DNA from: Ancylonema sp.
Taxonomy: Eukaryota
Direction: 5' to 3'
Assembly (NCBI GenBank): GCA_050230475.1
Contig: JBFLGF010000001.1
Span: 62,001-126,000 of the forward strand
DNA: 64,000 bases
Within the stretch, counting starts at the first letter, position 1. Every line of letters begins with the position of its first letter. Under the pieces are notes generated by a model that was not told the origin of the DNA, searched no databases, and saw only the letters and a list, made by a program, of their open reading frames with translations. Of the stretch, positions 26,501 through 51,691 are shown in pieces. The translations under genes and the position numbers were made by a program.

Positions 26501-27116
26501 CCGAACGGCTGCATTTATCGATAGAATCCCCTAGCACCGCTTGTATGCTAGGGAAGACCAAAACTGTTTTATATGTTATGCAATGGTTCTGCCATGATTT
26601 GGCAATGACTTGGGTACTTTTGTAGATGTCTGCATCTATGCCAACTTTAGCATGGCATCCGAGGGGATGTGTTAGAATATTTTGGATAGCCATATGTTAT
26701 GCGTGCTAGTCCAGTTGGACCGGTTACTCTAACCGGGAGCAATATTCTAGATGTGCCTGTATGCGGGGCCGGGCAAGTTTGTGCCCGGGCACCTGACTAG
26801 AGACGTTATAGAGTCGTTATTTGGTCGAAGCGTTGTGACTGGCTAGTTTAGTCGTGTCAGAAATGTCCGGCATGTGCCGTTGACATGTAGAAGAGCTGTC
26901 AGTCAATGATAGGTAGGCCGACGGTCAATTGTGCCGACCGTCGGCACGCAACAATCTGTAAAGCGCATCGGGTTATTACCATCCCCGATGCAATCACAAT
27001 TATAATTCGTTCCACACACGCAACTCTGTCTCGTTGATCATCAGTGAAGAGATCCTTTGCGTACGGTTCGTTTTGTCGCCCACCTAATTTTCCGGCACGT
27101 CTAATCACTCAAAAGC
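20545..27116 (+). mobile_element. Ty1/Copia LTR retrotransposon copy A (frameshifted)
   Basis: 5' LTR 20545-21000, PBS ggttatgggccca 21001-21013, gag with CCHC knuckles, protease, integrase (HHKLGH..CHVC, IHLDLIGP, IRTDKGGEY, QNGICER), RT (MDVITAFLHG, LYGLKQS, IHVDD), RNase H (YCDASW), PPT 26661-26669, 3' LTR 26670-27116 lacking its last 5 bp and the TSD. Confidence 0.95.
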
Positions 27117-28246: not shown

Positions 28247-30851
28247 TGACGTGCCAGATGAGATCGGTGTCATGACGCTAGAGATCGCTAAGGCGAAACC
28301 CCTCTAGATTGTTCAGAAACCCCTCTAGATTAATACTCTGCTATAACGAGAGTATTCGAGATAACGATTTTCTAGAACTAGTACTTTACAAGAAAAATAG
28401 TGAAGTACGAAATTTATACGACTCGAAAATAACGCGTGGCGTATTTTCCGAAGTCTAGAATCCAGTAGTCTTCAACAAATAGCTGCGTGTCGATTTTGTT
28501 AAAATCACAAGTCACTTTCGACTTGTCGATAATCCCGGCGATAAATCCAGCCGTAGAACTAGGTAATATCTCGCGCCGTTTCATTATAGCGCCGAGATTA
28601 ATTGTAATGTTCTAGAAGCCACCCTGTCGTTACTTCGATAGCTTAACTCTAGTTAACTATGCCGGTTAGCACCGCGCAACAACTTTTTGAGATAAAAGTC
28701 AATTTTGTACTTTCAGATATGCCCGCTTCCGCTGTCAGATTGCGTTGTTAAGAAATCCCTTCCAACAAATCTTATGTGTTATCGGAGTTCCTTGCAATTA
28801 TGTGAATATTGCATCCCTTCGCTTACGCGACTTCGCAACGTGCTCGTCGTCCGTCTCAGCCTGATATCCGTCAGCTTGACAGTAAGTTTGCAAATCATTC
28901 TTTGCAATCTGTGTGTGTGTAATCTGATTCATCTGAATCTATCGCTGACGCTCTTTTTGAGCCAGCCTTGCAATCGATTGTATTTTCTTACATCGATTCG
29001 CTGACTTTCTCTCTGAGCTAGCAAGCGTGCGTGTGTGTGTAAAACATTTGTCGATTTGCGTGTGTTCGCTCCGAACCGGAAATTTCATTTGTGTGTGTGT
29101 GTTTGCTGTCGCTCGCTCCGAGCCAGCATTTGTTGTTTACACCTGTCTGCTGACGCTCTTGCTGAGCCATCATCTTTTATGGACGCGCCGTCGATACTTT
29201 GCTTTCGCACCGAAAGTAACTCTTACGGCTGTTAACCTTGATAGTCTGCAACCAGACTATCTTGTTTGCTTTATAGTATTTTCACAACTTTTGTACTATA
29301 AACCATCTGTTAGCTCGCCCTCAACGTAGTGAATTTCACCCTAAAGTAGTTAGCTCGCCCTCAAGTAGTGAATTTCACCAGACCGCTGAGACGTGTGATA
29401 GATATAATATTGATATCTTAGCAGAGACTCAATCTGCAATATTACTTAGTGAGAGCAGCCGGACGACCAAGTCCACCTGAGACCTTTCGATCACCTACGA
29501 ACATCATCGATACCAACCCAGTCGACATCATCGCTACACCACCACGAGCATTACCACATGCATCATTCTGAGAAATATTAGAGAATATTGGTGACATAGT
29601 ATTAAGAATATCATTCCGGGCGGCCGACTCCAAACATCACGTCATCGGTAGGGTAAATGGGTCATCGATGATGGAATCAGTCGATGGAGGGGTAATCGCA
29701 CTCAAACTATCGACAGAAAGGGGTCTTGTCGATGTAGTGGAAGTGCATATAGGACCCTGGAATATCGTAACTCAGAGTACGGTGCTCCCTTGAATCGCGG
29801 TAGTGATTGTAAACAACCACAAAACGAGGCAATTTTCGAGCTTTATTCGCTGTACTACTCACTGCTAGCAAGCTATCACACGGTGCTCTTACTTGACGAC
29901 TTAAAAGTAACGAGAGCGACACAAGATTACAGCAATAGATGCGTTGAGTCTTGATCAACAGGCAATCGATTATGATACAATTTTTCAAAACTTGTCAATA
30001 GCAGCGCAAGAGGTGTGCGAATGGATTGCACGGATGAGCGAACGCTCGGTAATTCAAACGGGTGATTTCTGATTGCGCAGCAGGTCAGACAATCGATAAC
30101 TTCGGTAACGAGAGTAATTCACAAATTGCAAAGCGAGAGCTTGATGCAAAGCAATCACAAATGAGCGAACGCTCGATACACACGATGTTTCGAAAGCAAA
30201 AGATCACGGATTGCGCAAGGCAAAGAATTCAAAGTGTCGAGGAAAACAATGGTGTGCAAGGAAAATCTCTTCAGCGTCAAATTCAGCGAAAGCTGAGATT
30301 TGAAAGTTGTACAGGAGTCCTTATTGTCAAACTCGAATATTCTACTCGCGCGCTCGCTGGGATATGCGTGGCAAGGAATATCTAAATCAACTCGGCGCGC
30401 ACGCTATAATTGGTTGCAGACATCTCTAATTGATTCTGAGCTGTTGATCTAAAGAGCTACGGTCACGATTGATATTAATGACAGTCTGACACGTAGTCTA
30501 ATCAATTCAAATACAAAGGGGAGCTAGTCAAAGGTTGACTACTCGAAACTTAATAAAAGGGCGCCGGTCACCATCTCGGAATGAAATGAGCGGGGGCGGA
30601 GTCGTGACAAGGCGGAAAAACATAACGGTGCGGCTATTTTAATATTCTGATTCAAACAGAGGGGTTTCTAGGTGACGATTCATATAGGCATGAAGGGTGA
30701 CGTGCCACATGAGATCGGTAGGGTAAATGGGTCATCGATGATGGAATCAGTCGATAAAGGGGTAATCGCACTCAAAGTATCGACATAAAGGGGTCTCGTC
30801 GATGTAGTGGAAGTGCAGATAGGAGGCTGGAATATCGTAACTCCCCCCCCC
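28247..30851 (-). mobile_element. 3' terminus of Gypsy family-1 element X: PPT-A-B-A
   Basis: G9 tract 30851-30843; A 30842-30698; B 30694-29773; second A 29772-29649 continuing at 28267-28247 across a solo-LTR insertion. Confidence 0.8.
28268..29644 (+). mobile_element. Solo LTR (family 3) with TG..CA ends and 4-bp TSD
   Basis: tcgg|TGTCATGAC...CACGTCA|tcgg; removing it restores the A repeat (gagatcggtagggtaaatgg); start resembles family-2 B (tgtcacgacgtctgagatcg). Confidence 0.82.
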
Positions 30852-31019
30852 TAGAGTGAAGAGCTATGCGTTCACATATGGGTAATCAACAAAATTTATT
30901 AGGATCATAGTCACAGATTGTAGCATGTAAGGATGTAGCACAAGGGTTGCTCTCAGAAGCTAAAAAATGACAAGTTGTCGATAATGTGGAAGGTGCAGTC
31001 ATCACAACATCAGGGTCTG

Positions 31020-34000
31020 TATAAGCTTTTGAGTGATTAGACTTGCCGGCATATTTAGGTGGGCGACAAAACGAACCGTACGCAAAAGGATCTCTTTCAC
31101 AGATGATCAACGAGACAGGAGTTGCGTGTGTGGAACGAATTATTATTGTTGATTGCATCGGGGATGGTAATACCCGATGCGCTTTACAGTTTGTTGCGTG
31201 CCGACGGTCGGCACAATTGACCGTCGGCCTATCATTGACTGACAGCTCTTCTACATGTCAACGGCACATGCCGGACATTTCTGACACGACTAAACTAGCC
31301 AGTCACGACGCTTCGACCAAATAACGTCTCTAAGCGTCGGAAACATGTCAGGTGCCCGGGCACAAACTTGCCCGGCCCCGCATACAGGCACATCTAGAAT
31401 ATTGCTCCCGGTTTAGAGTACCGGTCACACTGGACTAGCACGCATAACATATGGCTATCCAAAATATATTCTAACACACCCCCTCGGATGCCATGCTCAA
31501 GTTGGCATAGATGCAGACATCAAAAGGAGTACCCAAGTCATTGCCAAAACATGGCAGAACCATCGCATCACATATAAAACAGTTTTGGTCTTCCCTAGCA
31601 TACAAGTGTGCTAGGGGATTCTATCGATAAATGCTGCCGTTCGGAAGACGATCGGAAGACGATCGGAAGCCGATCGGAACTCCAGAAGACGATCGCTCCA
31701 GATCCTTAGTCGTTTTTCGGGCCGAAGCCCTGCACATACAAACAAATGCCACAAGTTAGGCGAAAAACAAAAAAACTTATGAAAATATTTTTGATTTCTT
31801 TTAACTTTTTCAACTTCACGATTCTGAAACTTCACACTTTCCAGTCACAAAAATCTTCAAAACAACATAACTTCAAAATTACAAGTCCTATCAGCACCAA
31901 CTTTTGACACAAGTTTTGCAACAATGATTAGGACATACATACGAAAAATTAAGAACAAACTGACAAGTTTAAAGTTGAGCAGATTCACACTTTCTGATTT
32001 AAGTGTACTTAAGCGTTTTCAAGTGTCTTTTCGAGGTATTTGGGTGAAAATGTGACTTAGCTGGATGAGGCTGAAGTTGGTGTACCCTTCCCCATTACTT
32101 CTCTGCCTGAAAAGAAACATAACAACACACCCCCTGCCAACATGCATGGCATGAAACCTTCGATCATAAATAAAATAAACGACTGACACCCCTTCATAAC
32201 CGTCCAAAACCTAGACTTTTGCTGTGTCTGTCGTAAAACTTGGGGTAGAGCTTTAGTTAGCATATCTGCTGGTTTGCGCCTGCAAGATACACATATTTTA
32301 TCCCCGTGCTGGGCATTCCCGTACCCGTGATATACCACATTAAAATGTTTTGCGGTCTTTGCACAGGATTCTGGATCATGGAGAGAGCTGAGGTTGAATC
32401 AGTGTGGATTGTGATTTGTGTGGGAATTTGAGTTCTTTCAAGAGAGACTTAGATAACAGCATTCTTTAGACACACTACAGGCAGCATATACTCGCCTCAG
32501 CAGTGCTCTGTGCAACAGTTGACTGTTTCTGTCTTCCAACTCAGTGCTGTCCCCCCAACCGTGGTTACCCATCCAGTGACTGACTTCCCTGTCATGCTAC
32601 AACTGTTCCATGATGCATCGCAGTAACCCTTTACTTCAAATGTGTCTTTTCCCACAAACGTCAGTCCGTGGTTGACAGTCCCTTTAAGGTATCTGAATAG
32701 TTGATGTAGAGCCCTTATGTGTGCCACCCCAGGATTTCCCATGTGTTTTGCCAGTACCCCAAGTGCATACCCGATGTCCAGTCTGGTTTGTTTCATGGCA
32801 TATATGAGTGATCCCACTTTCCCACGAAAGTCTGTTATTTCTTCAGGGGTAGGGGGAAGAGTTGGTTCATCATTCTGTTTGAATTGAGTTCCAGGGGCGA
32901 GTGGGAGTTTGGTTGGATTACATTCATGCATCCCATAGCGCTCAAGCACTCCCCTTAAGAATCCTGACTGTCCCAGTGTGAGCAGTATTCTCTGTCTATC
33001 CCTCTTCACTTCCACCCCCAGGATATGGGTTAGGGGACCCAGATCCTTGACTTTGAACTTTTTACCCATATCTTCTTTAAAAGTTTTGACGACCATTGCG
33101 TTAGGACCTGTGATCACCTGATCATCTACATCATGTATGCCCAGTATGTCTGATGTTTGCTTCCCCCCTCATATATATACATGTGTCCATTACCGCATTG
33201 TTTAAACCCTTCAGATATCATAAATTTCCTGGAACATTTCCTGCCACACGTGGCTACTTCTGCTTTAGACCGTATAAAGCCCCCTTAAGTCGTAAGACCT
33301 TTCCCTCAGGCACCCCCATTGATATACATACGTGGTGGTATTTTCATGTAAACTTCTTCCTCCAGACGTCCATGAGGAACGCTGTGATTACGTCCATCTG
33401 TTCCAGTTCCCAGTCATATTGGTTTGCTATAGAGAGGAGTAGGGTGATATAGATGTACTGTCTCGATTACTGGTGCGCAAATACTTCATTATAGTCAATA
33501 TACCCTCTTGCTGTAAGAACCCCTGTGCGACCAGTCTGACTTTATATCTTTCAATATCCCCCTGTGGTGTTGTTTTGACACCTTAAACACACATATGCAC
33601 CCCACAGCCTATTTACCTGGAGGAAGCACACACACCTCAAAGGTGTTGAACGTCTCCAGGGCTGCTAACTCCTCCACAATGGCCCAGTCCCAGTCTCAGT
33701 CTGGCCTCATCATCGCATGGTTGAGTGTGAGTGGCTCGGAGGAGTTGCTGTTAGATGCTACGCACGCGTAGCCCGGATCCACAGGACCGTTGAAGCCAGT
33801 GTAGAAACTGCTGGGCTCCCACTCAGTCGCTGTATAATTGGCGTGAGCTGCGTCATCGAACTCCTCCCCCCCATCACATCACAAAATGTCCCCATACTCC
33901 GCAAAGTTGGCTCGCCTTCTAGCCATCACCCGATCAGCTACACTGCCAGGCTCCCCCACAACATCTGGGTTCGCACCCCCTCCTTGCACCTCCTCCTCCC

Positions 34001-37000
34001 CTGCATCTCCACCTCCTGCGTTGTTGATCCCTGATTGGCTGTCAGACAGCACAATCGTGGCGTTAGGGACCTCAGCAGCTTGTGGCTGGAAGTTGTCGTG
34101 CGGATAGTCGTTGGCAGCTGCTGGCTCAGGGACTGCTGGTTCTGCTGGTGCTGGGAGCTGGCATCGGCTGCAGAACTGCTGGCATGATCGGGTGGGGTGG
34201 ACTGCTGCTGCTGGCATGTTGGGGTCCAGACTGCTGCTGCTGGCATGTTGGGGTGGACTGCTGCTGCTGGCACAACTGCTGCAGCTGGTTCATCTTCAGG
34301 GTCGGGGAAAAGGTATAAAAAGTGTTTATCTGCTGCCTCCTGAATCTGGGGAGCTCTCCCCCCCATCAGCATCGGGTACCCCGGCACCTCCTCAAAGAAC
34401 CTCACGTCCATGAGTGATATCACCCCAGCTCTATGGGGATCGAAAACATTGTAGCCTGCACTCAGCCATCCCCAGAAACACACCAAAGCAAGTACGAGGG
34501 GCAAACTTGTCCCCTTGACTGTTCTTTTCCCCCCCAACCTTCAGATATTGGACCAGACACCCGAAATTATGACTTTTATTAACTGTCATGTTCTTTCCCT
34601 CCCAGACCTCAATTGGAATTTTCCCAGAAAGCGACTTAGTGGGTGTTCTATTCCTCAACCAGTTTGCATGTAACAATGCCACGTCCCAATAAGACTTCGG
34701 TAGACCTGACCAGATTAAGATGCATCGCATTTTTTCTGTCAATGTTCGGTTCAGTCTCTTTCACAGATTCCGTTTTGTTCAGGTATATGCTTCTGTGGTT
34801 TGTTTATCAATACCCTTCCCCCCCCAGTAGTTTATCCAGTCCTGAGACACATACTCCCCTCCCTTATCTGTCCGAATAGACTGTAGGGGCAGACCTGACT
34901 GGACCTCGAGCAATTGTATAGTGACTCTTGCTCGGTTCAGTGCTTCATCCATTGTTTTTAACAAACTCACAAATGACAGACGTGTGGATACCTCTATCCC
35001 TGTCTGAGCATATGTATACCCTCCGTTAGCTGACCTTACAGACAGTGGCCCAATGAGATCGAGGTGAATGCGATCCATCTTGGGGCATGTCCCCAGATCT
35101 GCACTGACTTAGCATGACTGAGCTGAGTCATCTTCCCCTGACAGCAAACCTGACATCCCTTTACTTCAGTTAATTCCCCCTGACTTAACTCTGGGATGTC
35201 CCCACGTCTGGCGAAATCTGACATCACATCAGAACTGGGGTGACCCAATTTGTGATGCCAGACCATGCCTGTGGACAAATTCGCTGTTGTATCATGAGAT
35301 CCAGGCATAACGATTGTGGGCAGCAAGCAAAGTCAGACCACTAGGCTGCTGGCAACACATCAGCCCATTTCACATTTCCCTTGTTTAATTCAGGACCCGT
35401 GGGCAGCTGTAGAAAGCTCAGCCCACCTCTTCTGACGAGGCACGATGTCGACACGAGGGTGCAGGCAAGGTTGGGACGTGGATCGAGCTGAGTGGCTGCA
35501 CAAAGAAAGCGTCGCCATTCCTCACTCGGATGTGCACGAAACCAGTGCCCTCCACCTTGCTTGTGTGACGAGCCGTCAGCAGTGGTGATGTATGATGAAG
35601 GCCTGCTGCGTGCTCAGGGTAGTACTCCACAAAGTGTTCACGAGCCGTGAAAATGTGGTCGGTAGCACCTGAATCCAGGATCAGGGAGTCTGAGTGAGGA
35701 CCAGCAGACATTGCCCGGGCAACATCGAACGAGAAAGCACCGAATGCTAAATAATCCACTAGCGTTGAAGGGTTTGTCAACAAAGCGAGCAAGTCTAGCT
35801 TGTGCATCAGCCCTCCTAGCAGCCTGGGTTCATTAGAGCCATGTCAGATGTTCTTTTTCTGCAATGTTCAATTGTGTGACCGACAATGTTGCAATATCTG
35901 CACTTTTGCCTCCCCCCTGAACTTCCCTGAGTAGCGTGCGCGACATTTCCAGCTGCTGGTGATGACGCAGGGCAGTGAGCAGCTCGGTGGCCTGCGTGGT
36001 GGAACCTGTGACATTTCCATGGCCCCGCATGACCTCCGCCAGATGCTGGTGAAGGGCAGTTCGCTCTGATGTGCCCGAATTTGTGGCAGCCGAAGCATTC
36101 GACGCCTGCAGCGTCTCTGCGACCAGCTCCAGTCGCACCACCAGATCTGCTGCTACCTCCAGCTCCATTCCCCCCCCCAGGTCCCACCATAATGCGCCTG
36201 GTGTCCTCCGGGCAGCCCGGGCAGCGCCCCCCTTTTTCGATCGTTCAGCTCTTTCCGCACGTCGGCGAAGCAGCGCACTCACGATGTGTGGAATCGTGAA
36301 GAGGTGTGGCGACGACTCGGACCATGGCATCAGCGTTGAAACCATCGGACTGTCATGCGTGTTTAACGAATTCAGCAGGTTGATCGATTGCTTCGTTGGA
36401 GATACTGGCGCCCCCCGATTCTTAAGGTCCTGATGCAGCTGCTGCAGACGCTTCACGTACACGTTGAGGTCCTCTGCCTCCGTCTGAATCTCAGCAATGC
36501 CTCCGTATTTGCGATCTCCATCGCACCCTGCACCTGGTAGAATGTCCGCAGAGCATCCCACATGCCGGCGGCTGTCGTGCAGTCAGTGACGTGCGTCAGC
36601 TCCGATGGCCCCAGGTGCTTCACAATATAAGACATAAGCCAGATTGTCCTCGTCCCATTTTTCCAGCTCCAGCAGCTGCTGGGAAATCTGCTGTTGTCGC
36701 ACCAACACTTCGACATCCACGTCGATCCCCCTGGCGGCAAATTGCAGCTCGTTATCAGGTGTCAATGGAAGGATTACACGTCTGGGCGACACTTTCGCGG
36801 CAAACTTTCCCAATCCATCACCAAACGGTGCAGTTTCTTATCCGCCAGCCCATACTTGACCTTGAAGGCCCATCCTGTATAATCAGCTCCAGTAAATTGA
36901 GGGATTTGCGACCTATCCGACATTATGGCAGCTATTGTGTAGGACTTTACAAAAATTCTCGCTCAGCTCGAGTTCTCAGTGCAATTCCTGCACTGCAGCA

Positions 37001-37629
37001 CTCAGCTCAAAAACTTGCAGCGCAATATCAGAATTACGTGCAGACCTTAACAACCTCGAATATATTTGCGCTCACTGGCTGAATATACCGTTCACAGAGA
37101 TTACCGCAGCGAAATCGCGTGGAGCCTTTAGTTTTTAACCTAAACGGCGTCTGAACTAGACCGCACGTGGGCCCTTAACCTATAAGCTTTTGAGTGATTA
37201 GACTTGCCGGAATATTTAGGTGGGCGACAAAACGAACCGTACGCAAAAGGATCTCTTTCACTGATGATCAACGAGACAGGAGTTGCGTGTGTGGAACGAA
37301 TTATTATTGTGATTGCATCGGGGATGGTACTACCCGATGTGCTTTACAGATTGTTGCTTGCCGACGGTCGGCACAATTGACCGTCGGCCTATCATTGACT
37401 GACAGCTCTTCTACATGTCAACGGCACATGCCGGACATTTCTGACACGCTAAAAGCCAGTCACGACGCTTCGACCAAATAAGTCTCTAAGCGTCGGAAAC
37501 ATGTAGGTGCCCGGGCACAAACTTGCCCGGCCCCGCATACAGGCACATTAGAATATTGCTCCCGGTTAGAGTAACCGGTCACAACTGGACTAGCACGCAT
37601 AACATATGGCTATCCAAAATATTCTAACA
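31020..37629 (-). mobile_element. Ty1/Copia LTR retrotransposon copy B (frameshifted), inserted in element X
   Basis: LTRs 37629-37181 and 31476-31020, PBS 37180-37168, PPT 31485-31477, 5-bp TSD gtctg/gtatg; same domains as copy A. Confidence 0.95.
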
Positions 37630-37634
37630 GTATG

Positions 37635-39377
37635 CACACATTGTAGCAGATGTAAATGGAATTGAAAATATTTTGGATTCAGCTTCCGATGTCAAAGGTA
37701 ACTTGTGTTTTGCAAAACCATGAATGCCATCAATAAACAAGTATTGTCATCGCATGTTGTCTTAACAGGTTCTGAAACAGGTTCTTCTTTGACGGTATTT
37801 TCATTTTTGGGAATGTTGGTAACTTGTGGTGGACATAAATGTATCACAGTTTCATCCTGGTAATGTATCATTTGCACAATGTGTTGGGGATTGGGATCTT
37901 TCAAGTCTATTAGGAGACTGTAGGGTAAGTCTCGTAATGTCTTGTTATTCTGGTTGTCTGGGATGGTCGCTGCTGTTGCGGATGAAGAAGTTGTAGAGTT
38001 GGAACCAGGCGAAGTTGCATTGGTGTCTTCATCCATGTAATCCATATGTATTGTGAATGAGAAGGGGTAATCGTTCTCAGAACTGGTGTCGGATTTTTTA
38101 GACTCGGAGTGTGAAAGAGAATTGTTAAATGTGGAACTGATTGGTTCCGGCTGGGGACTTGTTGGTGTTGTAGGGACGCTCCCCCCCAGATTCTGAGATT
38201 GTCGATGAAATGCACCAAGTAGACCGCCATACCAAACACAAATTTTATTGTCCATCATTCTTCCAAAGAGTTGGCAGTTTCGTTTGTTCAAGTAATTGGT
38301 GTCCGGGTGTGGAGGTATGGATATATCATCTAAGTTGTAATGTACAAATCTTGCACGCTCGCCAGGTGTTGGTGACACCCAGTGGTTGTTGGTGTTGTCT
38401 TTCGGCATCCCTTCTCCGTACGCGTACTGACGTAGATGTAGTCGCCATGTTAAGACATAGTCGGGGTTGTCTTGGTAAGGTGTAATCGGTGGCATGAATT
38501 GTCTTTCGTCGTAATAGTTGCTCTCATACCTATGTGTATTGGCCTTTTTGTCTTGTTCTCGATGCCCAGGATTGAGTAATCGTTCGATCTGTCGTTCCAT
38601 CTGTCGTTGGGAACAGTTGCTCTGAGTTGTCCATTGGGGAATGTATTTTGCTAGATATGTGTTTGTCGGTAAGAGTGGGAACCAAGTTGTAAAGCGTTGA
38701 CTGTAATCATCTTTCCAAGAAATTGTAATGCAACTTGTACAAGTTCCTTAGACCACAGGGGGTAATCAGCTGGTCTGGTATGGTTGTAGAACATGTATGT
38801 CGGTATAAATGGATGCATCTTCTGAAGTTTTTGGACGAGTATCACTAGTGTAAACAGGGCTGCCACTCGAGGATCTTTGATTGTGGCAACGGGTGTCTCA
38901 TTACGGATCACCTCGGTATGCAAATTGCCGCAGATGAAGTCGATTGGTCCATGAGTCTATCATGTTTGAGAGATCGGTACTCGTTGTATTCACCAATGAG
39001 TTTGGTAATCTTGTATCGAAGCCATTTAACGCAGAGTTGGGTAATTGTCTTGGGAAGAGTGTTTGAATGTCTTTCACTTGGAGACGTTGTGACATACGTG
39101 CCTCCGGGTCTTCTTCTTGAGTGGTAAGGGTAGAGATACGGAATCCGCCTTTGAGTAGCATGATGAGTCCAGAAAGGTCGAGACCTGCAAATGGTAACCG
39201 TACATGAAGGCCATATTGTGGGTCGATGAGTCGAACTAATATGGTAATGCATTTATATTCGTCATACAAAATGCCAGGCCAAAAGGGTTGCCATGGGGAT
39301 TCTATTTTTGCGGTAAGCAACATCTTCTTCAGAAGTCGTTCACTTTCTTGACTAAGCATAAGGTTGTCAAACGTCAT
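37635..39377 (-). pseudogene. Disrupted 3' accessory ORF of element X (methyltransferase-like N-terminal part, S/T/P-rich tail); continues at 31019-30886
   Basis: Consecutive - strand ORFs 39377-38901, 38923-38651, 38600-37692; removing Copia B joins ..TSATMCA|DPDVVMTAPS.. in frame up to a stop just before the PPT. Confidence 0.6.
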
Positions 39378-39384
39378 TTGTTTC

Positions 39385-39690
39385 GCGTGGTAGTCATGTT
39401 TGCGTGCAATATGTGGAGATGCAACATCAAAATATTTTTGTAGAACGGTATCAACGGAATCAAGCCAGGGAGCGTCGAAAGCTGCAACATTTGCAAACTG
39501 GGAAAGTTACCTCGACAATCCTTTGCAAAGGTCACCCGAGATCCTGGTATCTGCCACCCCCTTGATATGATCTTCGTCGACTTGGCCGGACCGAACAAAC
39601 GTGCCACATTAGGGGGTGCGTACTATGATATGGTGATCATCGACGCATACACTCGACGAACGTGGGTCTTACTTATGATATTGCACAAAC
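39385..39690 (+). pseudogene. Copia-type integrase fragment (not in ORF track)
   Basis: Manual translation: SCNICKLGKLPRQSFAK..PLDMIFVDLAGPNKRATLGGAYYDMVIIDAYTRRTWV. Confidence 0.8.
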
Positions 39691-39789
39691 CCCCCCCCCA
39701 CATACTATACCTTCACCTGGTTTTTCTCTTCTGACACACCCCCCCCCAGATCATACCCTCCGAAGGCATCACCGAGGGTAGGGTCTGTG

Positions 39790-40933
39790 TCCTACTGGGG
39801 ATGAAGGAAACCCAGGATGGCAGCACACCACTCCAAGATACTCCCGTCGATGGCCTGGCCGAGCATATGTAGTCGTTCCGCGGGGGACACCATAGGTCCA
39901 TTGTCGGTGTCGTCACGATGAGCTGTGCCTCACGCACGGTGGGACTCTCCCACACCTTGGTGAGGGTGTTGTAGAGGTGACGAGGTCCCATTTGACCGGA
40001 CGGGGACATCTTGAAGGCGTTGCTCTTGTCGAAAGAGACTAACGTGGGCAGCACCCGACGTGGCTGACCGCGCACGTTGACGAACCGATGAGGAAAAGAA
40101 GATAAGGGAGGGCTGGTGGTAGTCTTCAAGCACCATGGTGAGGACAGCGAGCGGATGGTTCACTAGAACCCAGCGCTGGGGTTGATTGGGTGCCGCCAAG
40201 TTGGTCTAGAAGCGTCGGAAACCGTGTGACAGGCCTCCCACCGTGGGAGCGTCGATACAGATAGAAGGTTCTCCGTGGAAGCTGCAGATCTGAATATTTC
40301 CACGCTTGACAAGGGCATCCGCACGCACATCCAAATTCTCTAGCAAGTAGATGACTTTCCTACCCGCCTGTTCATCCTAGCATCAATAGATCAAATGCAC
40401 CAGCTCCAAGAATGAGCCACACCGACTATCATCTGCCCCCTTACCTAGGCCAACTGTAGTGAATGGTTGACAAGGAAAACCCGCCCCAATGAGATCAATG
40501 GATCCGTATCCGGCCGCCAATTAGCCATCAGGGTGTTGGAGATGAGGCGGATGTCGTGAGGTAGGCGTGTGTCAAAGCCTTGTATAGCTGCCACGGACAA
40601 GAGGTGTGGGTACCGCAGCTTCTTATTTGCCACGTGCCCCTGCGCGGACAGATGCACTTTGGTGTTATTATCCACAACAATAAGCGTCTTGACCTTTAAG
40701 TTGGCCTTCCGGGCCATGGTCGACACGGGGCAGCCCACGCCACAAAAGAAGTCGACCACGTGCACGCCTTCGGCGAGCTTCTGCGACGGGAGTCGACGAA
40801 GGTTTTGAGAAATGGGGTGAGCACGGTTCATCTCAGGACCTGTCCAAGGAGGCAAAGGGGACTGCAGAAGTGCAAGGATCACGGCACGCTCCGCTCCATC
40901 CAAACGGGCTATCCACAGTCGTCTAGCACGCAT
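39790..40933 (-). pseudogene. Dnmt3-like DNA (cytosine-5) methyltransferase domain in a retrotransposon, decayed
   Basis: Ordered motifs across frameshifts: I VVDFFCGVG (~40755), IV IDLIGAGFPCQPF (~40480), VI YLLENL (~40340), VIII IDAPTVGGLSHGFRRF*TNL (~40230), IX PTVREAQL (~39940), X ERLHMLGQAID (~39860). Confidence 0.88.
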
Positions 40934-42037
40934 CTAACGGAAAGCATATGTGACTACTTAAAGGATTTGTCTCTTAACAACGGTAGCGCACAAATTCAAT
41001 GCTTTACAACAACGAAAAATAAGTGTATGGTAAAGCAATGACGTCTTGGTATGATTTTGAAATGTTAATTATGAAATCGTTATCGTCGGGCTAACGTACC
41101 CGACGAGCGTACAACGGTACAATGATTAGTGGTCGCTCTTCCTACCGACGGTTGTAACTATTTGACCGCCGCGCATTCTAAGCATGCCAACGCACACTTG
41201 TATACGGCAACTTGCCGGACTCGGCCTTCACCACACAACTCCAGCCACCGGCGTGGTGACACCGCCTAACATTCTACAACGACTACTAGAAAGGTCACGC
41301 CCGTACAAGTATGGACGTGCCATGAGCGGACGGATACCCGGGTGCAGCATACCCGGCTCCGTGTCATAAAAGACTCTAAGGAAATTAGCGGAGAAGGCGA
41401 GCAAGGTGGAATAAGTGCCTATCCGAATTAATTCCTAATAACCACAGCACGCTGGCTCAGCAATTCAAGTTTTTGTTCAAAGGTTGAGAGACGAGGAGAA
41501 ACTACTAGAGTAGGTGCGGGAATCAACCAAAACGCAAGTTCTCTTTAGGAACGGCAAGCTTCTTAGCTGCCGGATCTGTTTGCATAGTTTCCAAGAAGGG
41601 AATAACCAACCTTACCAGTCGCGGGCGTTGCACGCATAGTTCAGACATGGGTCCCTCTCGCCCACACATGCCTTGGTCATGGACCCCATCCCTTACCAAT
41701 GTCGTGTTGTGGAGGAGGGTGTCCACCTGTTTTTGTAGATCGGGGATATCCAGGTTGGGCACTTGCAGGGTGCGAGCGTTCAGCAGCCGGTTGGTCAAGA
41801 AGGTAGTGGCAGCAGCAGCCTTCTGCTGGTCGCGAAGGGACTCTCGAGTCTAATATCTTCCGCGTACCACTGATCTGCCTGTCGATGTACGGCAGCTATC
41901 TGGCCCTTGTTGCCGATCTCTGGGCCCGTGTCACCTGCAAAGCACTGAAAGCCTACTGCCTCGCCACCCGGCGTCTGCAGATCAAGTGTAGCATATAGGT
42001 CAATAGCAAACTTGGTAGTGCGTTTGGATGTGGTGCT

Positions 42038-42391
42038 CTAGTCTGGGTTGTATTCCACATGACTTTCACGAAAGTGCATACTGTTGGTGACACAATGAAT
42101 GAATTGTGCACCAATGAGAACATCATAGCTAGTTGCATTGTCCACCACAATGTGGAGATACACACATGCTTCATCGAGTGTTCTTTCATTCAGACCCTCT
42201 TTTAATTTTCTTTTGGTGACACCTCTACAGCGAGCACTTTCTCCACATGTCATGGTGTAATTGATGCTAGCATGAAGGTTAGCGTCCGTTAACTTCATCG
42301 TATCTCCCACTCTTTTGCCTACCATGACATAAGTTTGCTCCTGTATCCCAAATGGAGATCTCTGGCTGATACCCATCCAAAGTGAACACAC
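42038..42391 (-). pseudogene. Retroviral-type aspartic protease remnant
   Basis: C-terminal protease signature HIVVDNATSYDVLIGAQFI; catalytic DTG motif not recognisable. Confidence 0.55.
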
Positions 42392-42630
42392 CAGCCTGGT
42401 TTGGAACTGACTAGGTACTGAGCACTTACTTGATAGGTTGGGTCACGAATGGAGAAGAGTGCTCATCTAGAACGCAGCGGGTCGTCCAAGGTAGTCATCA
42501 TGGCAGGGTGGAGGTGATCGGTGCCTCCACCAAAATGCGGTAGTGATACAACAGATGCTGCAAATAAGTTGTTGACTACTGACGAAGGGTTAGTACATGC
42601 ATCCCTATAGTCAAGCGGCAATCTACGACC

Positions 42631-42955
42631 GGGAGGGGGTGTTGTCATAAGAGTAGAGTCCCCACCACTGGGAGTTGCAACAGCTTGTGACAGCGGCTTA
42701 CCCTCACACCTTTCCATTCGAACGGGAGGGGGTGCTTCAAAAAGAGTACAGTTTCCTCCATTGGAAACTACAACATCTTGTAGGGGCGTCTTACCCTCAC
42801 ACCTTTCCTTGCGACTAGGAGGGTGTGTTGTAACAAGAGTGCAACTTCCTCCACTAGAAACTACAACAGCTTGTGTCAGCGGCTTACCCGGAAGGGAGGC
42901 TAAGGAGAGGCTCTGTCCACCACTAGAGTCAGCAGCACTCTGTGTTAGCGGCCCA
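42631..42955. repeat. 93-bp imperfect tandem repeat in the putative gag-protease linker
   Basis: Units start at 42631, 42724 and 42817 (period 93 = 31 codons), plus a partial fourth. Confidence 0.8.
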
Positions 42956-42970
42956 TTGTCATGACTTGAG

Positions 42971-44145
42971 TGACGTGCCAGATAGGATTGATAGGGTAAA
43001 GGGTCGTTGATGACGTAATTAGTTGATGTATGACGTCATAACGTAGTCCATCGACATGAATTGGCAAATGTCGATATCGATGACTTTGTAGGTGTAACTG
43101 GGCATCTGCCCTAACTAAGGAGTTTTGCGCGCTTGATTCGCGGCACTGATTGTGAACAATCACGTAAACGACGGCAGGAACGTCGCCTTGACTTGGCAAC
43201 TCTCTCACTGCGGGCAAGCTGACAACGCGATAGCTCTACAATGATACTAAATGCAGAGTATGCGATACAATACCACAGTAAGAACAGTTATAGCTCTCGG
43301 TCAGCGAGCAGCTATTTATGTGTAAGTCTGCACTACTTGTAATCAGCAGCAAAAAGATTGTGGGTCTGCACACCGACTTGCGTCGTTGTAAATGTGTGAG
43401 TCACGAGCAACAACGATAGTAAAGTACTGAGAGCGACAGCTCGATCATCCAAACGATGATAATAGCAAGCAACTAGATGTAGATGCGAAAGATTGCAAGC
43501 AAAGCAAAGTCACACACACAAGATACAAAATACACGAGAGGCAAGATGGAATGCAAGTCTCTTCAGCGTTAGATTCAGCGAAAGTTGAATTTTGAGTTCG
43601 AAGTACACCGGTTTTATTCAAACTCTACAGACGACGCTAGACGCGTGTCGATCTACAATTCAATCTCACAAAATATGTCTCGCGCGCAAATGTCTTATCT
43701 ACAATATCTATCGTCGGATATTCATCGACGGCTAACATTTATGACAAGTCATCACAAGTTGATTTCTGACTAGTACAAAAGTGCCACGTCGGATCGACGA
43801 CTAATAAATGCTAAGCAAATCTAATGCAAATATTGAGCGGGGGCGCAGGCTGACAACTGGAGCTCGGGAGCGGGGCGGAAGTTGTAGTGCGGCGGAACTC
43901 TTGATTTGGCGCGGCGCAGACGTGATTTATTATAGGGAGAGATTTAGTAGATATTAGGGGTAAAATAGCTAACGATCTCAGACGTCGTGACAACTGACGT
44001 GCCAGATAGGATCGATAGGGTAAAGGGTCGTTGGTGACCACCTGATGTATGACGTCATAACGTAGTCCATCGACATGAATTGGCAAATGTCGATATCGAT
44101 GACTTTGTAAGTGTAATTGGGCATCTGCCCTAACTCCCCCCCCCC
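42971..44145 (-). mobile_element. 3' terminus of Gypsy family-2 element: PPT-A'-B'-A'
   Basis: G10 tract 44145-44136; A' 44135-43995; junction GGCACGTCA-GT-TGTCACGAC; B' 43992-43117; A' 43116-42971. Confidence 0.82.
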
Positions 44146-44573
44146 AAATTGGTAAGACATGCGTCCACGTCTGGGTCGTTGAGGCAGATGTAGGAAGCAG
44201 GATCGCAGTCGCATAGTAGAGCGTGCAGGCGAGCAGAAAACAAGTTGGAGTTGTCAGGGTAACGTCAACAACTTGTGCTTGAGTTTGTAAAATCGGAGTA
44301 CAGTGGATTGTTCCCTACTTGCAGTCGAACTGGACTAGTAGTTGAGGATGTATCCGAATCGTGTGGTGATGCTGGGTGTTGTACTGGTTGCTTGTGAAAC
44401 ATCAGTCGTGCCGTTGTTGGCGAAAGTAGTAATTTGTGAAAGAAAAACCCATTAACTCCATCAATTAACAAGAAGTGGTCTTCGCTGTCTTATGATGTTG
44501 GTGTTGAGGAGTTGGTTGAAGATCGGTGTGTCTCCGAGTCATTAGGGGGCATTCGAAGTCTTGGTGATAATGG

Positions 44574-47500
44574 TAGCAGTGAGTTGTACATCGAATAAAG
44601 CTCGAAAACTGCCTCGTTTTGTGATTGTTTACAATCACTGCCGCGATTCAAGCGAGCACCGTACTCTCAAAATCAGCGAAAGGGTCTGTGCCCACCAACT
44701 ACGTGACTTCGACGGCTTTCAGTTCAAGAAAGGTACGTGAAAAGTGTAGTTTTTTTTCCCCCTACCTCGTTGCGTTGGCATAGATTCATATCTGTGCATC
44801 CAAGAGTAGTTGGAATTGATATCTATACGATGTGCGTGGTTTATCTGTGAAATTTTGTGAAATCGCTGTGAAATTTGCGTGCTGGATTATCATTGTGAAA
44901 GCTATTTCGTGAAATTGTGAAATTCTTAGCATCTTTGTGATCTAGATTCTTGCAATCTTTGCTTTGGCTACCATTCGTTACGGGTTGTTACTAGATTTAC
45001 CGCTTTGTGACTAAGAGAACCACGAATATACTTCATAGAGTTAGTTCCTGCACCTGGATCACGCAGTACCTAGCCTTTCACGCCAGTAAGGGAGGGTCAA
45101 TTTCTTGCAAGTTCATTCTGTTTTTTGTGACACTTTACAAATACGAAAAGAAAAATTACCTATACCCTGCCCAGAATTTTTACCCTGCGACCTCACGGTC
45201 CTCCAAGACCCGATTCAAATTTACTTGACCGAGCTCAATTCATTCGACATCTCAGTATTATGTGGGAGGTGAGTGTAAACATAACGACGATGGATCTCAG
45301 TATGTGGAGGGGGTAAATCAAAACTTTGTTGGCCCTTCACCAATGGCTTGTGATGAAGATTTTGAACGTTTAGGAGAGGCAGCTCTTGCATTCCCTGTTG
45401 AATTCCATGCCCTCCGGTACAATGCTGAGGAGGGGGCGTTCTTTTATGATGGTATTGCATGTTTAACTACAAAAAATAACCTGAAGAGCGTCTTTACATG
45501 CCTGTTTGAATCGTCAGCCAGAAACCCCTCTGTTTTAATTAAAATATTAAAATAGCTGTACCGCTATGCTTTTCCGCCTTGTCACGACTCCGCCCCCGCT
45601 CATTTCATTCCGAGCTTCGTCGTTGACCGGCGCCCCTTTTATTAAGTTTTGAGTAGTCAACCTTTGACTAGCTCACCTTTGTATTTGAATTGATTAGACT
45701 ACGTGTCAGACTTGTCATCTATATCAATCGTGATCGTAGCTCTTCAGATCAACCGGGCATAATAAAATAGAGATGTATGCAGCCAATTATAACGTGCGCG
45801 CCGAGTTGAGTTACAAATTCCTTGCCACGCGTATCCCAGCGAGCGCGCGATTAGAATATTTGAGTTTCACAATAAAGACTCCTGTAACATTTCAATTCTC
45901 AGCTTTCGCTGAATTTGACGTTGAAGATATTTTCCTTGCACACCATTGAATTACTCGACTCTGAGTTCTTTGCCTTGCGCAACCCTTGCAATCTGTGTCA
46001 TCTTTTGCTTACGCAATATCGTGTGTATCGAGCGTTCGCTCATTTGTGATTACCTTGCATCAAGCTTTCGCTTTGCAACCGTGTGTTTATCATCGTTACC
46101 GAAGTTATCGATTGTCTGACCTACTGCGCAGTCAGAAATCACCTGTTTAAGTTCCCGAGCGCTCGTTCATCCGTGCAATCCATTTGCACATCTTTTTTGC
46201 TGCTAATGACAAGTTTTGCAAAATTGTATCGTCATCGATTGCTTGCTGATCAAGAATTGAAGCATCTTTTTGGTGCAATCTTGTGTCACTCTCGTTACTT
46301 TTAAGCCGTCAATTAAGAGGAGCGTGTGATAGCTTGCTAGCAGTGAGTAGTACAGCGAATAAAGCTCGAAAACTGCCGCGTGTTGTTATTGTTTGCAATC
46401 ATTGCCGCGATTCAAGCGAGCACCGTATTCTTAAGTTACGATATTCTAGCCTCCTATCTGCACTTCCACTACATCGACAAGACCCCTTTCTGTCGATACT
46501 TTCAGTGCGATTACTCCTCCATCGACTGATTCCAGCATCGATGACCCATTTACCCTACCGATCCCATCTGGCACGTCATCTTTACCTCCGTAAGGCTTAG
46601 CTGTTATACGACGATTGGACCCGCCGGCTCGCTCATGAGCAGTTGTTGCGGGAACAGCACTTGCGTGAGATGATCGACGACCAGAAGCCCATGATGGCGG
46701 CAGCTGGTGAGAAAGATGCATGGAAGCTGGGCAGTCAACTCTACCCAAGTGAGACAGAAGGTATGGTTTCCTTCCTTGAGAGTCATGTAGACTCGTTTGC
46801 TTATTTGACAGCAGATGTAGGGTGATTCACAGGGGAAGCAATGGCAATTTCCTTGACAACAGACAAACCTATCTTGTCACATGCTCATAAAGTTGGGAAA
46901 TCGGAATGCGATTTTGTGGGGGGAAATTGTGGTATAGTGGAACAGCGAGGTCTTATCAGGCCATCTTTGCAGTCAAAATATGCATATGCAAGAGTGGTAG
47001 TAAGGAAAAGGGATGAAACAGGGGCGCACACCGATCTACGTCAATGTGGAGATTACAAACCTTTGAACTTGTACACAAAACTTGACAGATACCCACTTTT
47101 CGCAATTGAAGATGTCTTCCAAGAACTACAAGGTGTTGTCATCTTTAGAAAGTTGGATCTTAAGTCAGGCTATCATCAGATCCCGGTTGCAGAAAAGGAT
47201 AGGTGCAAGACAATTTATTGGAATCAAAACCGTCAGTCAAAGGAATGGACTGTCGTGTCGTTTGGACTAAAAAACGCTCCCCTTTTCTTTCAACGCCTTA
47301 TGGACCGAGTGCTTGCTGGACTATCTTTCGCAAAATGCTATAGAGATGATGTCATTGTTTGGAGTACATCTTATGCGGAACATATTAAGCACCTCGAGAT
47401 TATGTTTCAAAGCCTCAAGGACTAGGGACTGAAAATCCATCCAGGTAAGTGCTTGTTTGGGGTTGAGGAGGTAGACTTCCTATGACATCGGGTAAACACG

Positions 47501-48640
47501 TATGGCATCCGTCCTCAGATGGAAAAAACGCAAGCTATTCGAGATATGCAAGTACCTAAGGATGTGTCACGATTGCGTGCTTTGCTAGATTTGTTTTAAT
47601 ACCATAGGAAGTTTGTGCCAAATTTCTCGTCTATAGCAACCCCTCTCAATAAGTTGTTAAAAAAGGATGAGCCTTGGCGCTGGACCATCAACACTTCCGA
47701 CACTATCTCATAGGGAGTCACTTCACCCTTCTGACTGACCATGCTGCTCTTACATGGATGATGACTACGTCTAGGTTGACTTGCAGGTTGGCTAGCTGGT
47801 CCATGGTGCTGCAAGAATATGATTTCAATACTGAGTATACCCCACGAGTGGAGAGCTCGGTAGCTGACTGTTGCAACAGGTTTCCCATGCCATCTACGGA
47901 AGACAGTCTGAGGCACAAATGGAGGAATCGGGAGTCATTTGCACGGCTGTGGGTGCTGAGCACAGGGGCTTTGTGCTAGCTCCTCCCACTCACTTTGCAT
48001 ACCATGCTGGTGGCAGTTCCCTTCCTGCAGTCTTTACCCCTGCAAGTGGTCCACTTGCACCTTCTTCAGCAGGACCTTCTTTTGCCTCAGCCCTGTCAAC
48101 GAAAGGGACACTGGAGGACGCTCGAGGAGTGACCCCCATGTTGGGACCAGGGGGGGAGCGGTGGGGACAACCCCTTTCCCATCTAGCGACAATGGAGGTC
48201 AAATTGGAGCAAATCCCTTTATGGCGGACAGGGGGGGAGCGGAGGGGACAATCCCTGTGGACGTCTGGGAGGACACCCCGGTGCTCACCTTCCTCAAGCA
48301 TCATCGACACACACTAGGCGCTCTCAACGCAGCCCGCAATCGGTTGTACACGCGAGCTCCGAGTTATCGGTTGTTGGGGGGGGTGTTGTACAAGGATTTT
48401 CCAAGTGGTGGTGGTGTTTTTTTTGTGGCATCATGCTTGTTGTGCCTGAAACAACTGCTCGCCTTCCCTTCATTCGTAAGGTGCATTAGCAGTTATGTCA
48501 TTTTGGCATCAACAGGGTTCAACAATTGCTTCAAAAATATTGTTGGTGGCGCAAGATGGGTCATGATGTGCGCGCTTTGATTTCGAATTGTCATTCGTGT
48601 GTGCGTACAAAGGCTTCTTTCCGTGACCCTCAGCGTTGCA
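44574..48640 (+). mobile_element. Ty3/Gypsy family-1 element Y, internally deleted and truncated
   Basis: 3' part of B (44574-44667) then PBS-like site; RT 46841-47680 (RQCGDYKPLN, LDLKSGYHQI, FGLKNAP, YRDD); partial RNase H (FRHYLIGSHFTLLTDH); integrase H2C2 finger (H..LCHFG..WWRKM..CHSC) ending ~48640; RT-RH-INT order. Confidence 0.85.
45495..46578 (+). mobile_element. Solo B-A LTR of family 1 inserted in element Y
   Basis: B 45495-46433 + A 46434-46578 ending GGCACGTCA; flanked by tctt (extendable to tctttac); reverse complement of 29649-30694. Confidence 0.82.
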
Positions 48641-48755
48641 ATAGACGAGACCTGGATTGAAGATGGAAAACAATGTGTTCTCCACATTTCTCACCCCTGA
48701 AAACGGTTGATTGTGGAAATAATGAAGAGCAAATGAGGCGCAAAAGCATCCCATG

Positions 48756-51691
48756 CTACTCTGCCACAAACTCTTTGTTGTCATAATACTTGCTCTCGCT
48801 TGCCACCTTCTTTTTATTCCGGGCCTGCGCCACATATACATGTATAAGAAGAGGACCCTCTCGACCAAAACTTTTGATGACATACGACACAAGAAAATCA
48901 AAACAACGGCGTATGCCGAAAAAAAAGAAAAAAAAAAAGGAAAAAAAAAAAAAAAAAGGGGGGGGGGGGGGAGGGGAAAGACTACTCAAATTCCGTGCCA
49001 TCTCATTGCGTGTGACGCATGCTCCCCACCCCATCATTAGAACCTAACGGTCCATTGCAAACAAAATTCCCGCCATGTGAGACACGCACCACGTAGGCTT
49101 CATGGTTGGCCGCGATTCGTTTCATGATCATGGATCCGGTGATGGCGTGTTTGCTTTCGATTATCTTCAGAATGCCAGCCGCACGCGGGACCGCGTATGG
49201 GTCCACCATCCCCTGCCACATAGACACATGTACGGATGCCACGTGTCATCACGAGGCGTCGCCATCCGGGGCTACAGGCTCTGAATTCTCACATCTGAGA
49301 GCGGATTTGGTTCCGCTGACGAGCCGTGCGCGACGAGAGAGATGTTGAAAGTCGTCAACTGCGGGTGGGGAAACGAGAGGCGCACTTAGGTGAGTGGGAG
49401 AGAGGTAGGAAAATCCGAAAACTCGTTCATTCGTTAATTCGTTAATTCGTTAATTATTTTCCCCGTCCTCACCATGTCTTTGGTCACCACTCCCGGCGCC
49501 CCAATGATGACCTCGTCCACGTGGCGGCACGACATCACACTCAAGGCGCGCTCGTGGAGGGTCATGATTGGATGATCGGAACCGCGACGAGAACTACCAC
49601 CCACCCCGTGGTCCACATCCGGTTAACCGAATTGGTCAACCGGATTTGAAAACCGTACGGGTGACACCACTTCTTTTTACCTCACGGTGGCATCCGTGTG
49701 AAGTCCCACGAGGAGAAAGTCCCCAAGACTACGAGCCTCCTTTAAAGTCTGAACAAACGAAAAGGAAATGAAAAAGGAAATGAAAAAGGATTTCCCCCCC
49801 CCCCTCCCCCCCGCCCTTGGCGCCGTACCTCCACGTGGCCAGCGTGGAAAAGGTCAAAGGCGCCGTCGCAATAAACGATACGCGCGCCAAGGGGGGGACT
49901 CTGCACGGACATTCACATAAGGCAACATGTGGCAACCCACCCTAACCTTAGTCACTTCTTCCAAGCTATCCATTCTAAGTAAATATTTTGTAACAAAAGA
50001 CGAACTCACGTGTTTCGTGGTCGTGATACATTTGGATGTGAGTTGTGAGAGTATATTTTCCTCCTTATGATTGTGATTGTATAGACGTGTGTGTGAGAAA
50101 GTATGAGTCCCACGTGGAGTGTGTCCCTTCACGTGTCAACGTGTCATTGGGGGATTACATGCATATGCGATGGACACGATTGGGCACAATAATGTGTTTT
50201 CATGGCTCCACCAGGCACGTGGGAGATCACAACTCTTGAGATGCGCTTTCAATGGATGAGATGGATAAGATCCACTCATCCACTTCTATCTAGTATAGAT
50301 CCGTACATATACGTGGATTCGTCTACACGGGCAGCGTATGTATGCACCTACGTCTCTATGTATGTATGTATGTAAGTATACATGTAAGCAAGCAAACACA
50401 TGTGGTATACATGAAATTCATGCATGCGTGTACAAATATTGCATATGTTGGTGTTCTTAACGCTTGTGAAAGGCTTTGTTTGGCGGTGTAAAGACTCCAA
50501 CAATATTTAAAGGGGAATCCCAGAAATGTGAGCATAATAATATTGTGGAGAACCGGAAACGGAATACCAATTGTAGACTTTCTCACATAAACCACCCTTT
50601 ATTCCGAATGGGGGTGTGGGAGGGGTGACCTGGTTGTTGGAGAACTGCACAATTCGTCGAGATGTGGGGAGGAAGTGGGAAATTCTTTGCGAATCCTCTG
50701 ATTCATTCTCCACTTTAGGAAGGGGGCCGTCTCCCCCTGCCACTTGTCCGCTGCTCACGCATTGAAGCATGCGACCTACAACACACCCCACAAAGGCACC
50801 CCTACTATCTATTAGTAAGACCTTGCTCTCCTTTCACAATGACACACCCCACAAGCGTCTATTCATATATAATCCGGAAACGGTAAGGTTATCAAGTAGC
50901 GTAGAGGGTATTGAATCTGTACATATATAACCATATACAAGAGATAGAATATCATTTTTGAGACGACAAGTTGGCTAAGGATATATGCCGAGTTTCTCCT
51001 AGTCAATACTTTGAGGTGTCCATGTATGAAGAGTGTCTCGTAAGAAGGGTGACGTGCCTACGATGTCTGTGCTGGACACGCCCTCTGTGCGCTTGATCTC
51101 CTTATAACGACCTGCTGCCTTGGGCAGTGCGTATGCGTCAGATCCATCGGGAAGGATGCATGGATCGTCGCCGTGGATGATGTAGTCCACTCCGTACTCG
51201 TTATAGAGGCGGTTCAGGAAGGCCTCGTTGATACAGTACGGGGTGGCGGGGATAACCGCATCCACCCACTTGACGGATTCCACGAGGCTCAGGCTGCGCC
51301 ACTCCCATCCCCCAGCACGCTGGATTTATTATTAACGCCGATCAATTTGATGCCCCGATATTCAATTGAGCCATACAAGGTGTGGGAAATACCGCTCGGT
51401 CATGGACATGACTGGTGGCCCCTTATTGGCTCGGATCTCGTCGTCGGAGACCACCCCGACAAAAAGCTCGTCCCCCAATGCCTTCGCCTGACGGAGGGCG
51501 TTTGCGTGACCGTAGTGCATGACGTCGAAGCAGCCGTCGATGAACACTCGTACCTTCTTTCCATCCTTACGCTTACCCGCGCGCTCAATAGTACGATCGG
51601 GAAACATGCGCCAGAGTATCACGCCGGCAGAAACAAGGGCAATTGTCGCGAGGAGAGCTGGAAGAAGATTGGGGTTCTCGGGGTTAATCAT
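48756..51691 (-). CDS. PECT1: Ethanolamine-phosphate cytidylyltransferase, 9 exons
   Basis: Exons 51691-51393, 51293-51058, 50775-50630, 49900-49829, 49748-49681, 49593-49473, 49358-49293, 49212-49090, 48824-48756; two CT domains (DGCFDVMHYGH, DGAFDLFHAGH), RTEGVSSTDIVGRML, N-terminal TM helix. Confidence 0.95.

Follow-up and report, generated by a model that had tools for sequence, protein, structure and literature searches.

A Ty3/Gypsy clade with split long terminal repeats and a proposed integration route through joined cDNA ends

Split repeats in the window

The window considered here is a stretch of 64,000 nucleotides from the eukaryote Ancylonema sp. (GenBank assembly GCA_050230475.1, contig JBFLGF010000001.1, positions 62,001 to 126,000 of the forward strand; coordinates below count from its first letter), in which Ty3/Gypsy retrotransposons carry long terminal repeats (LTRs) split into two parts, A and B, in the order B-internal region-polypurine tract (PPT)-A-B-A. 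This split layout is real and is a trait of a whole clade. The repeats of the window were mapped by self-comparison and by inspection of their junctions, and since the matches have E-values of 1e-32 or far lower, their order is not due to chance.

Both approaches bear out the order PPT-A-B-A that a preliminary description of the stretch had reported for two families. In family 1 (minus strand), the PPT, a G-tract at 30843..30851, adjoins A1 (30698..30842), which is the 5' part of the unique 3' region (U3) and has AGTTA at its start and CACGTCA at its end; there follow the 3' B (29774..30695), comprising the rest of U3 plus the repeat and unique 5' regions (R-U5) and decayed at its start in this copy, and an A2 in two pieces, 29645..29773 and 28247..28267, the latter ending the element. 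The interruption is a solo B-A unit of family 3 (28268..29644, plus strand) with TG..CA ends and an exact target-site duplication (TSD), TCGG; its A/B boundary, near 29448, is placed by motif only. Family 2, also on the minus strand, consists of the PPT (44136..44145), A1 (43995..44135), the 2-bp spacer GT (43993..43994) of a candidate integrase attachment (att) junction reading CA-GT-TG, as first described, the 3' B (43117..43992), which begins TGTCACGAC, and an A2 (42971..43116) that forms the 3' end. A second TGTCACGAC, resembling the start of B, lies about 85 bp inside the B of family 1 (30609-30601, minus; 45580-45588, plus).

A second solo B-A unit, of family 1 (45495..46578, plus strand; B up to 46433, A from 46434), sits inside a pol frame, since one homologue (P0011) matches both of its flanks. 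The solo units had been described as B-A with 4-bp TSDs and TG..CA ends, clean in family 3 and with a degenerate 5' TG in family 1, which holds for family 3; for the family 1 unit, with its decayed 5' end, the TSD TCTT and a 7-bp duplication with a trimmed B fit equally well. The only 5' end in view, taken earlier to be B without A, keeps just the last ~100 bp of the family 1 B (44564..44668, plus strand), which is too little for the window by itself to establish that A is missing. No full-length split-repeat element and no integrase core lie within the window. All three readable insertion points (28268-29644, 45495-46578 and 42971) lie in other elements belonging to this clade.

The family 1 internal region (37630..42970, minus strand) holds a decayed protease-like part, two tandem decayed cytosine methyltransferase copies (38181-39248 and 39711-40909, minus strand), so that the methyltransferase of the relatives is matched twice, and a Copia-like fragment; neither reverse transcriptase (RT) nor integrase is found in it. 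A decayed Gypsy pol of the same clade occupies 46579..48720 (plus strand) before being truncated: RT (46826-47422), RNase H (47671-47976) and the integrase zinc finger H2C2 (48490-48657) follow one another on the plus strand, the integrase core is truncated, and further pol homology lies at 45361-45450.

Relatives, element ends and priming

For comparison, a scan of metagenome contigs covering 12 of the 64 parts of a collection gave 554 confirmed loci, 80 of which were kept; all are on contigs assembled from short reads. Self-comparison was applied to 56 loci, and all 80 were screened with real A and B copies. An A follows pol in 40 loci (35 distinct), and the 3' ends of the 35 distinct loci read A-B-A in 20 cases (one of them with a shortened A2, another with an additional PPT in front of A2), A only in 12 and A-B followed by unrelated DNA in one, with two running off their contigs. 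At the other side, B comes first at all 20 distinct 5' ends and is never preceded by A, in agreement with the 5' end first proposed from the window. A repeat of ~0.9 kb in L136, taken for B at first, proved to be an unrelated solo LTR.

Twelve relatives are complete, all starting TGTCATG, the start of B. When TSDs were counted at the start of B and the end of A, anchored on these motifs and with L074 omitted because its A2 is truncated, 36 of the 48 positions matched for a length of 4 bp, against a shuffled mean of 15.75, and none of 200000 shuffles reached 36. Per element, four duplications are perfect, five have one mismatch, two have two and one has three; lengths of 3 and 5 bp give no signal and 6 bp a weak one (p 0.027). 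The ends assigned in the preliminary description thus stand, and neither identical repeats at both ends nor TSDs at an A start and a B end were found.

Copies in the same organism agree. Contigs from three runs representing two samples were aligned to positions 42850-46700; two of these runs (X1 and X2) are from one sample, which may be the window's own source. Loose ends of mixed sequence accumulate before 45497 and after 46578 (42 contigs each, among those listed), and the agreement of the flanks is 0.43 at the start of B and 0.37 at the end of A, heterogeneity setting in exactly at both points, as expected for element ends. Where contigs return from the end of A (46578) to B (45497), GTTGT, GCTGT, ATTGT or GCTCT stands in between; hence other family 1 copies read CA-NN-TGTCATG, as family 2 does.

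Priming signals delimit the LTR of the cDNA. A purine tract immediately precedes A1 in 33 of 33 distinct loci among those listed, two of them decayed. Overlooked in the preliminary description, a primer-binding site (PBS) adjoins the end of the 5' B of family 1 (44669..44682, plus strand): of its 14 bases, 13 pair with a site in B (30279..30292, minus strand), ~30 nt past an AATAA box, which is the predicted self-primer and transcript start. In family 2, a loose end at 44654 gives the end of B followed by GATTCAGCGAAAG, which pairs with the corresponding site in that family's B, its predicted self-primer (43584-43571, minus strand). The PBS complement lies at one fixed site of B in 18 of 20 relatives, ~31 nt from the start of a TATA-like box, and the primer/PBS pairs differ between subfamilies. 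At least 11 of 13 positions form Watson-Crick pairs in 10 of 20 relatives versus 2 of 560 control 13-mers, and folding the 5' end of one relative recovers the PBS/primer stem (z -3.67). A PBS complementary to the element's own transcript start is reported as the self-priming signature of Tf1/Sushi and Tcn1 (PMC6317226), and we infer that the split-repeat Gypsy clade is likewise self-primed. As the PBS adjoins B and the PPT adjoins A, the end of B is the end of U5 and the start of A that of U3, so that reverse transcription would make an LTR reading A-B, which upholds the earlier proposal on this point.

The proteins place these elements among the Gypsy retrotransposons. Of the full-length pol relatives, the closest ones (50-60% in RT) have RT, RNase H, H2C2, the integrase core rve and PHD, some with a cytosine methyltransferase, and the complete metagenome relatives have the order RT-RH-H2C2-rve-PHD; a DNA_methylase domain occurs in L065 as in the family 1 internal region. 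To the question of which enzyme is encoded, raised in the preliminary description, the answer is a DDE integrase: D,D-35-E is present in all 15 full-length pol rows of a 16-row alignment. No tyrosine recombinase was matched by Pfam in 81 frames of three complete elements (37 of 37, 20 of 37 and 24 of 32 frames) or by PHROGs in 25 frames, a weak negative in both cases as the copies are decayed. In a quick RT tree (107 rows, midpoint root, no Tf1 reference, the window RT on a long branch), the split-repeat loci and the window RT all fall on one side of a branch with a Shimodaira-Hasegawa-like approximate likelihood ratio (SH-aLRT) support of 99, and the split order recurs in two deep sublineages; three loci for which the same screen detected ordinary LTR pairs (L123, L137 and L139) fall outside. 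No chromodomain is listed for the close relatives, the chromodomain-bearing matches falling outside the clade. Named members include Coleochaete scutata and Calypogeia fissa, and no Klebsormidium nitens element is among the protein matches listed. One cluster of the clade, P0263, has 226 members, including a record labelled uncultured cyanobacterium, which is probably binned eukaryotic DNA. No viral relative was matched by the RT query, and the alignment query gave only distant reverse-transcribing virus genomes (27-34%), which were not used; DNA pattern scans returned two unrelated matches in viral contigs and none for the A-end pattern in metagenome contigs.

Other features of the window lie apart from the split repeats. 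An ordinary Copia element (31020..37629, minus strand), not part of the finding, lies nested within the internal part of family 1, 170 bp ahead of the PPT, and is 89% identical to a second copy (20544-27116, plus strand), both with paired LTRs of ~460 bp. The Copia-like fragment mentioned above (39444-39731, plus strand, opposite to family 1) is a short piece of integrase. Host genes for an aldehyde dehydrogenase and for a protein with RRM and zinc-knuckle domains are among 12362-13009 (plus) and 16137-16757 (minus); the frame of the former shares 66-77% identity with its best matches and ~70% with moss, lycophyte and Klebsormidium proteins, which points to a streptophyte host, probably an alga. 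Chara braunii as the host found no backing among the protein matches. A further gene at 51040-51700 (minus) is, as we take it from its motifs, cytidylyltransferase-like. Two inverted repeats that have diverged (65%) and an array of tandem repeats are found at 56138-57858 and 59913-60414.

Junctions and a proposed mechanism

Two kinds of junction are found in these elements. Among 25 rows, two of them duplicate assemblies, 23 show the A|B junction as CAYRACA-NN-TGTCATG, its spacer being 2 bp long; this junction forms a palindrome of two att half-sites, in line with the CA-GT-TG first noticed in family 2. Its spacers are GC (8), AC (7), AT (5) and GT (3), which would fit one ancestral GC decayed through C-to-T change. 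The B|A2 junction links the end of B, as seen before the PBS, to the start of A as defined by the PPT. It is exact in 11 of 20 cases; the other nine show losses of 1-3 bp, gains of 1-18 bp or a join to a point ~135 bp ahead of the PPT, whereas only two of 25 A|B junctions are altered (Fisher p 0.006), and B|A therefore looks newly made in each cycle. Much of the variable middle earlier ascribed to B|A is the fixed end of a family's B (in family 1 ACTCTC, which also precedes the PBS). In L116 (10880-11060), an AT microhomology connects the end of B with a site ~135 bp ahead of the PPT, which gives A2 a PPT of its own. In six of six elements, the identity of A1 to A2 lies within about 3 points of that of B1 to B2, so that all repeats date from insertion.

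Read directly from the letters are the layout, the ends, the TSDs, the adjacency of PPT to A and of PBS to B, the PBS complement after the TATA box, and a pol with RT, RNase H, DDE integrase and PHD. We consider it likely that these B-internal-PPT-A-B-A elements, with their TG..CA ends and 4-bp TSDs, arise when the ends of an A-B..A-B cDNA are joined and a DDE integrase opens the internal palindrome CA-GC-TG. The RNA would begin in B and self-prime, as in Tf1, and reverse transcription would yield A-B-internal-A-B. Imprecise joining of the ends, by host end-joining or by RT that continues past the B end into the start of A, would then turn the molecule into a ring, either closed or nicked. Acting on the att site next after the new junction, the integrase would make a staggered cut after each CA of the palindrome, leaving 2-nt overhangs and normal integrase ends, and would insert the product with a 4-bp stagger. 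The terminal A must be remade by joining the B end of the cDNA to the A start, as the RNA cannot template it by ordinary strand transfer, and would thus be regenerated in every cycle. B-internal-A copies and solo B-A units may be dead-end products, formed when both att sites are cut or by later recombination. The more general proposal, that an old clade of streptophyte Gypsy elements, with a PHD integrase and often a DNA methyltransferase, has had its integrase site shifted into U3 and propagates only via end-joined, ring-like cDNA, is in our view only somewhat favoured.

Several observations weigh against this interpretation. The mechanism is deduced from anatomy, and no circle, cDNA end or cleavage has been observed. 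A symmetric 2-LTR circle has two equal att sites and hence predicts B-A-B-internal-PPT-A as well, an arrangement found at none of the 20 5' ends and in none of seven complete two-repeat elements (p 0.016), and A-only 3' ends make up 12 of 35. One locus, L078 (13460-13600), passes from A-B into unrelated DNA and is the sole one ending at B; another, L109 (4200-4270 and 13270-13330), is inserted in an unrelated solo LTR with an apparent 8-bp duplication. The small B|A indels were scored by eye in a region of short repeated units, all copies are decayed, and the window pol is cut off from its 5' B by a discontinuity at 45259. The circle reopened inside its LTR, put forward in the preliminary description, is supported in its joined-end junction and not supported in its plain symmetric form: as B-A-B-internal-A is never seen, the choice of att site must be biased. 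Such one-sidedness could arise if the att after the new junction were favoured, for instance in a nicked ring made by RT, or if the substrate were a 3'-extended linear molecule.

The strongest alternative, although we think it rather unlikely, dispenses with a ring: on reaching the B end of the plus strand, RT would go on copying at the A start of a different cDNA or strong-stop fragment. The product would be a linear A-B-internal-A-B-A-(B) molecule with three att sites, any two of which integrase may pair. It predicts exactly the products seen (B-internal-A-B-A, B-internal-A and solo B-A) and never B-A-B-internal-A, and the +1, microhomology and long-jump junctions (L066, L067, L083, L093 and L116) would suit template jumps; moreover, the RT of Tf1 is reported to add untemplated bases and to retain primer copies at cDNA ends (PMC11042837). 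Equal divergence of A1/A2 and of B1/B2 is, however, what a single molecule should give, near-identical partners being still compatible, and two internal double-strand cuts would be needed rather than one. Less credible is a symmetric closed 2-LTR circle cut at either att, with B-A-B-internal-A since collapsed to B-internal-A by recombination between the B copies. B is longer than A and would recombine more easily, and the A-only 3' ends (12 of 35) would be explained, but the loss of B-A-B would have to be nearly complete (0 of 20 5' ends) while 20 A-B-A ends persist.

A tyrosine recombinase, own or acting in trans, could resolve the split repeats as in PAT and Ngaro, the apparent TSDs then being recombination cores; the repeats stand in the same order as in PAT, Ngaro and TOC1 (A1-B1-A2-B2; PMC4157794), yet the TSDs vary by site and differ from the 2-bp spacer, a PPT and a Gypsy-type RT are present, and complete elements carry rve, H2C2 and PHD with no recombinase match in the 81 Pfam and 25 PHROGs frames, which makes it very improbable. 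Equally improbable, and largely refuted already, is rearrangement of ordinary LTR elements after insertion (nested solo units, tandem duplication or assembly error), suggested by a heavily nested, decayed window and by short-read comparison contigs, since two families of the window and two deep RT sublineages share this order, TSDs enclose the entire B..A unit, A and B pairs are equally old, and the same screen detects ordinary LTR pairs outside the clade.

Comparison with known systems

The preliminary description knew of no such layout in Gypsy elements, and this did not hold: the layout itself has a one-line precedent. The legend of Fig. 4c in PMC5890265 reports KnitGypsy-Dnmt3 of Klebsormidium nitens as having a DIRS-type repeat structure with Gypsy domains, Fig. 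1e of the same paper giving the DIRS structure as A-coding region-B-A-B. Compared by description only, KnitGypsy-Dnmt3 resembles the present clade in its Gypsy domains, the cytosine methyltransferase in Pol, the DIRS-like repeats and the streptophyte host. In contrast to the account given here, the main text of that paper is silent on TSD, priming, att site, circle and PHD; by term count, "circular", "PHD" and "target site" are absent from it, and three supplementary files lack KnitGypsy (PMC5890265). The portion available of a 2026 preprint on methyltransferase elements contains nothing on ends, priming or mechanism, and no paper on these subjects was found in the literature searched, Repbase Reports and most subscription journals being outside its scope. 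As far as searched, the internal att site, the 4-bp TSD, self-priming, the remade junction and the one-sided product are new.

LTR elements are held to integrate as linear cDNA, 2-LTR circles being regarded mostly as a dead end. The anatomy of the clade requires that the cDNA ends be joined and that the att site be internal, so that the question of the integration substrate can be tested with a defined substrate. If the proposal is true, this would be an LTR element obliged to pass through a 2-LTR-type junction, which would then be no dead end. In practice, programs that identify LTR elements by paired LTRs will miss or mis-annotate these abundant elements.

With Ty3/Gypsy elements the clade shares the order of protease, RT, RNase H and integrase, the integrase being of the DDE type, a PPT and a PBS bounding the LTR, and TG..CA ends with a short TSD; it departs from them in lacking a complete LTR at both ends, the 5' end being B only in 20 of 20 cases and the att site lying at A|B. 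In the copy-out circles of IS3/IS911, a DDE enzyme opens abutted inverted ends separated by a short spacer; these are DNA transposons whose junction is made by the transposase, whereas the junction of the clade is inherited within the LTR. The integrase of foamy virus is reported to cleave a palindromic 2-LTR junction (PMC1180852), and the proposed chemistry, a DDE integrase cutting a palindromic CA..TG in double-stranded DNA, thus has a precedent; in that virus, however, the palindrome is the LTR-LTR junction and the product an ordinary provirus, while here the palindrome has a fixed place inside U3 and the att site is distinct from the joined cDNA ends. Tf1/Sushi and Tcn1 likewise have a PBS that pairs with the predicted start of their own transcript and a DDE integrase, but carry an ordinary LTR at both ends, whereas the clade has PHD in place of a chromodomain and an att site away from the cDNA ends (PMC6317226, PMC11042837). 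Finally, PAT, TOC1, Ngaro and VIPER are described with the identical order of split direct repeats, A-coding-B-A-B, seen here at 20 of 35 3' ends; they encode a tyrosine recombinase, in contrast to the DDE integrase, TG..CA ends, 4-bp TSD and PPT of the clade (PMC4157794). If true, the proposed route would be the DDE-integrase parallel to the split repeats of tyrosine-recombinase retrotransposons, and would offer a simple account, independent of any recombinase, of how split direct repeats originate and are regenerated.

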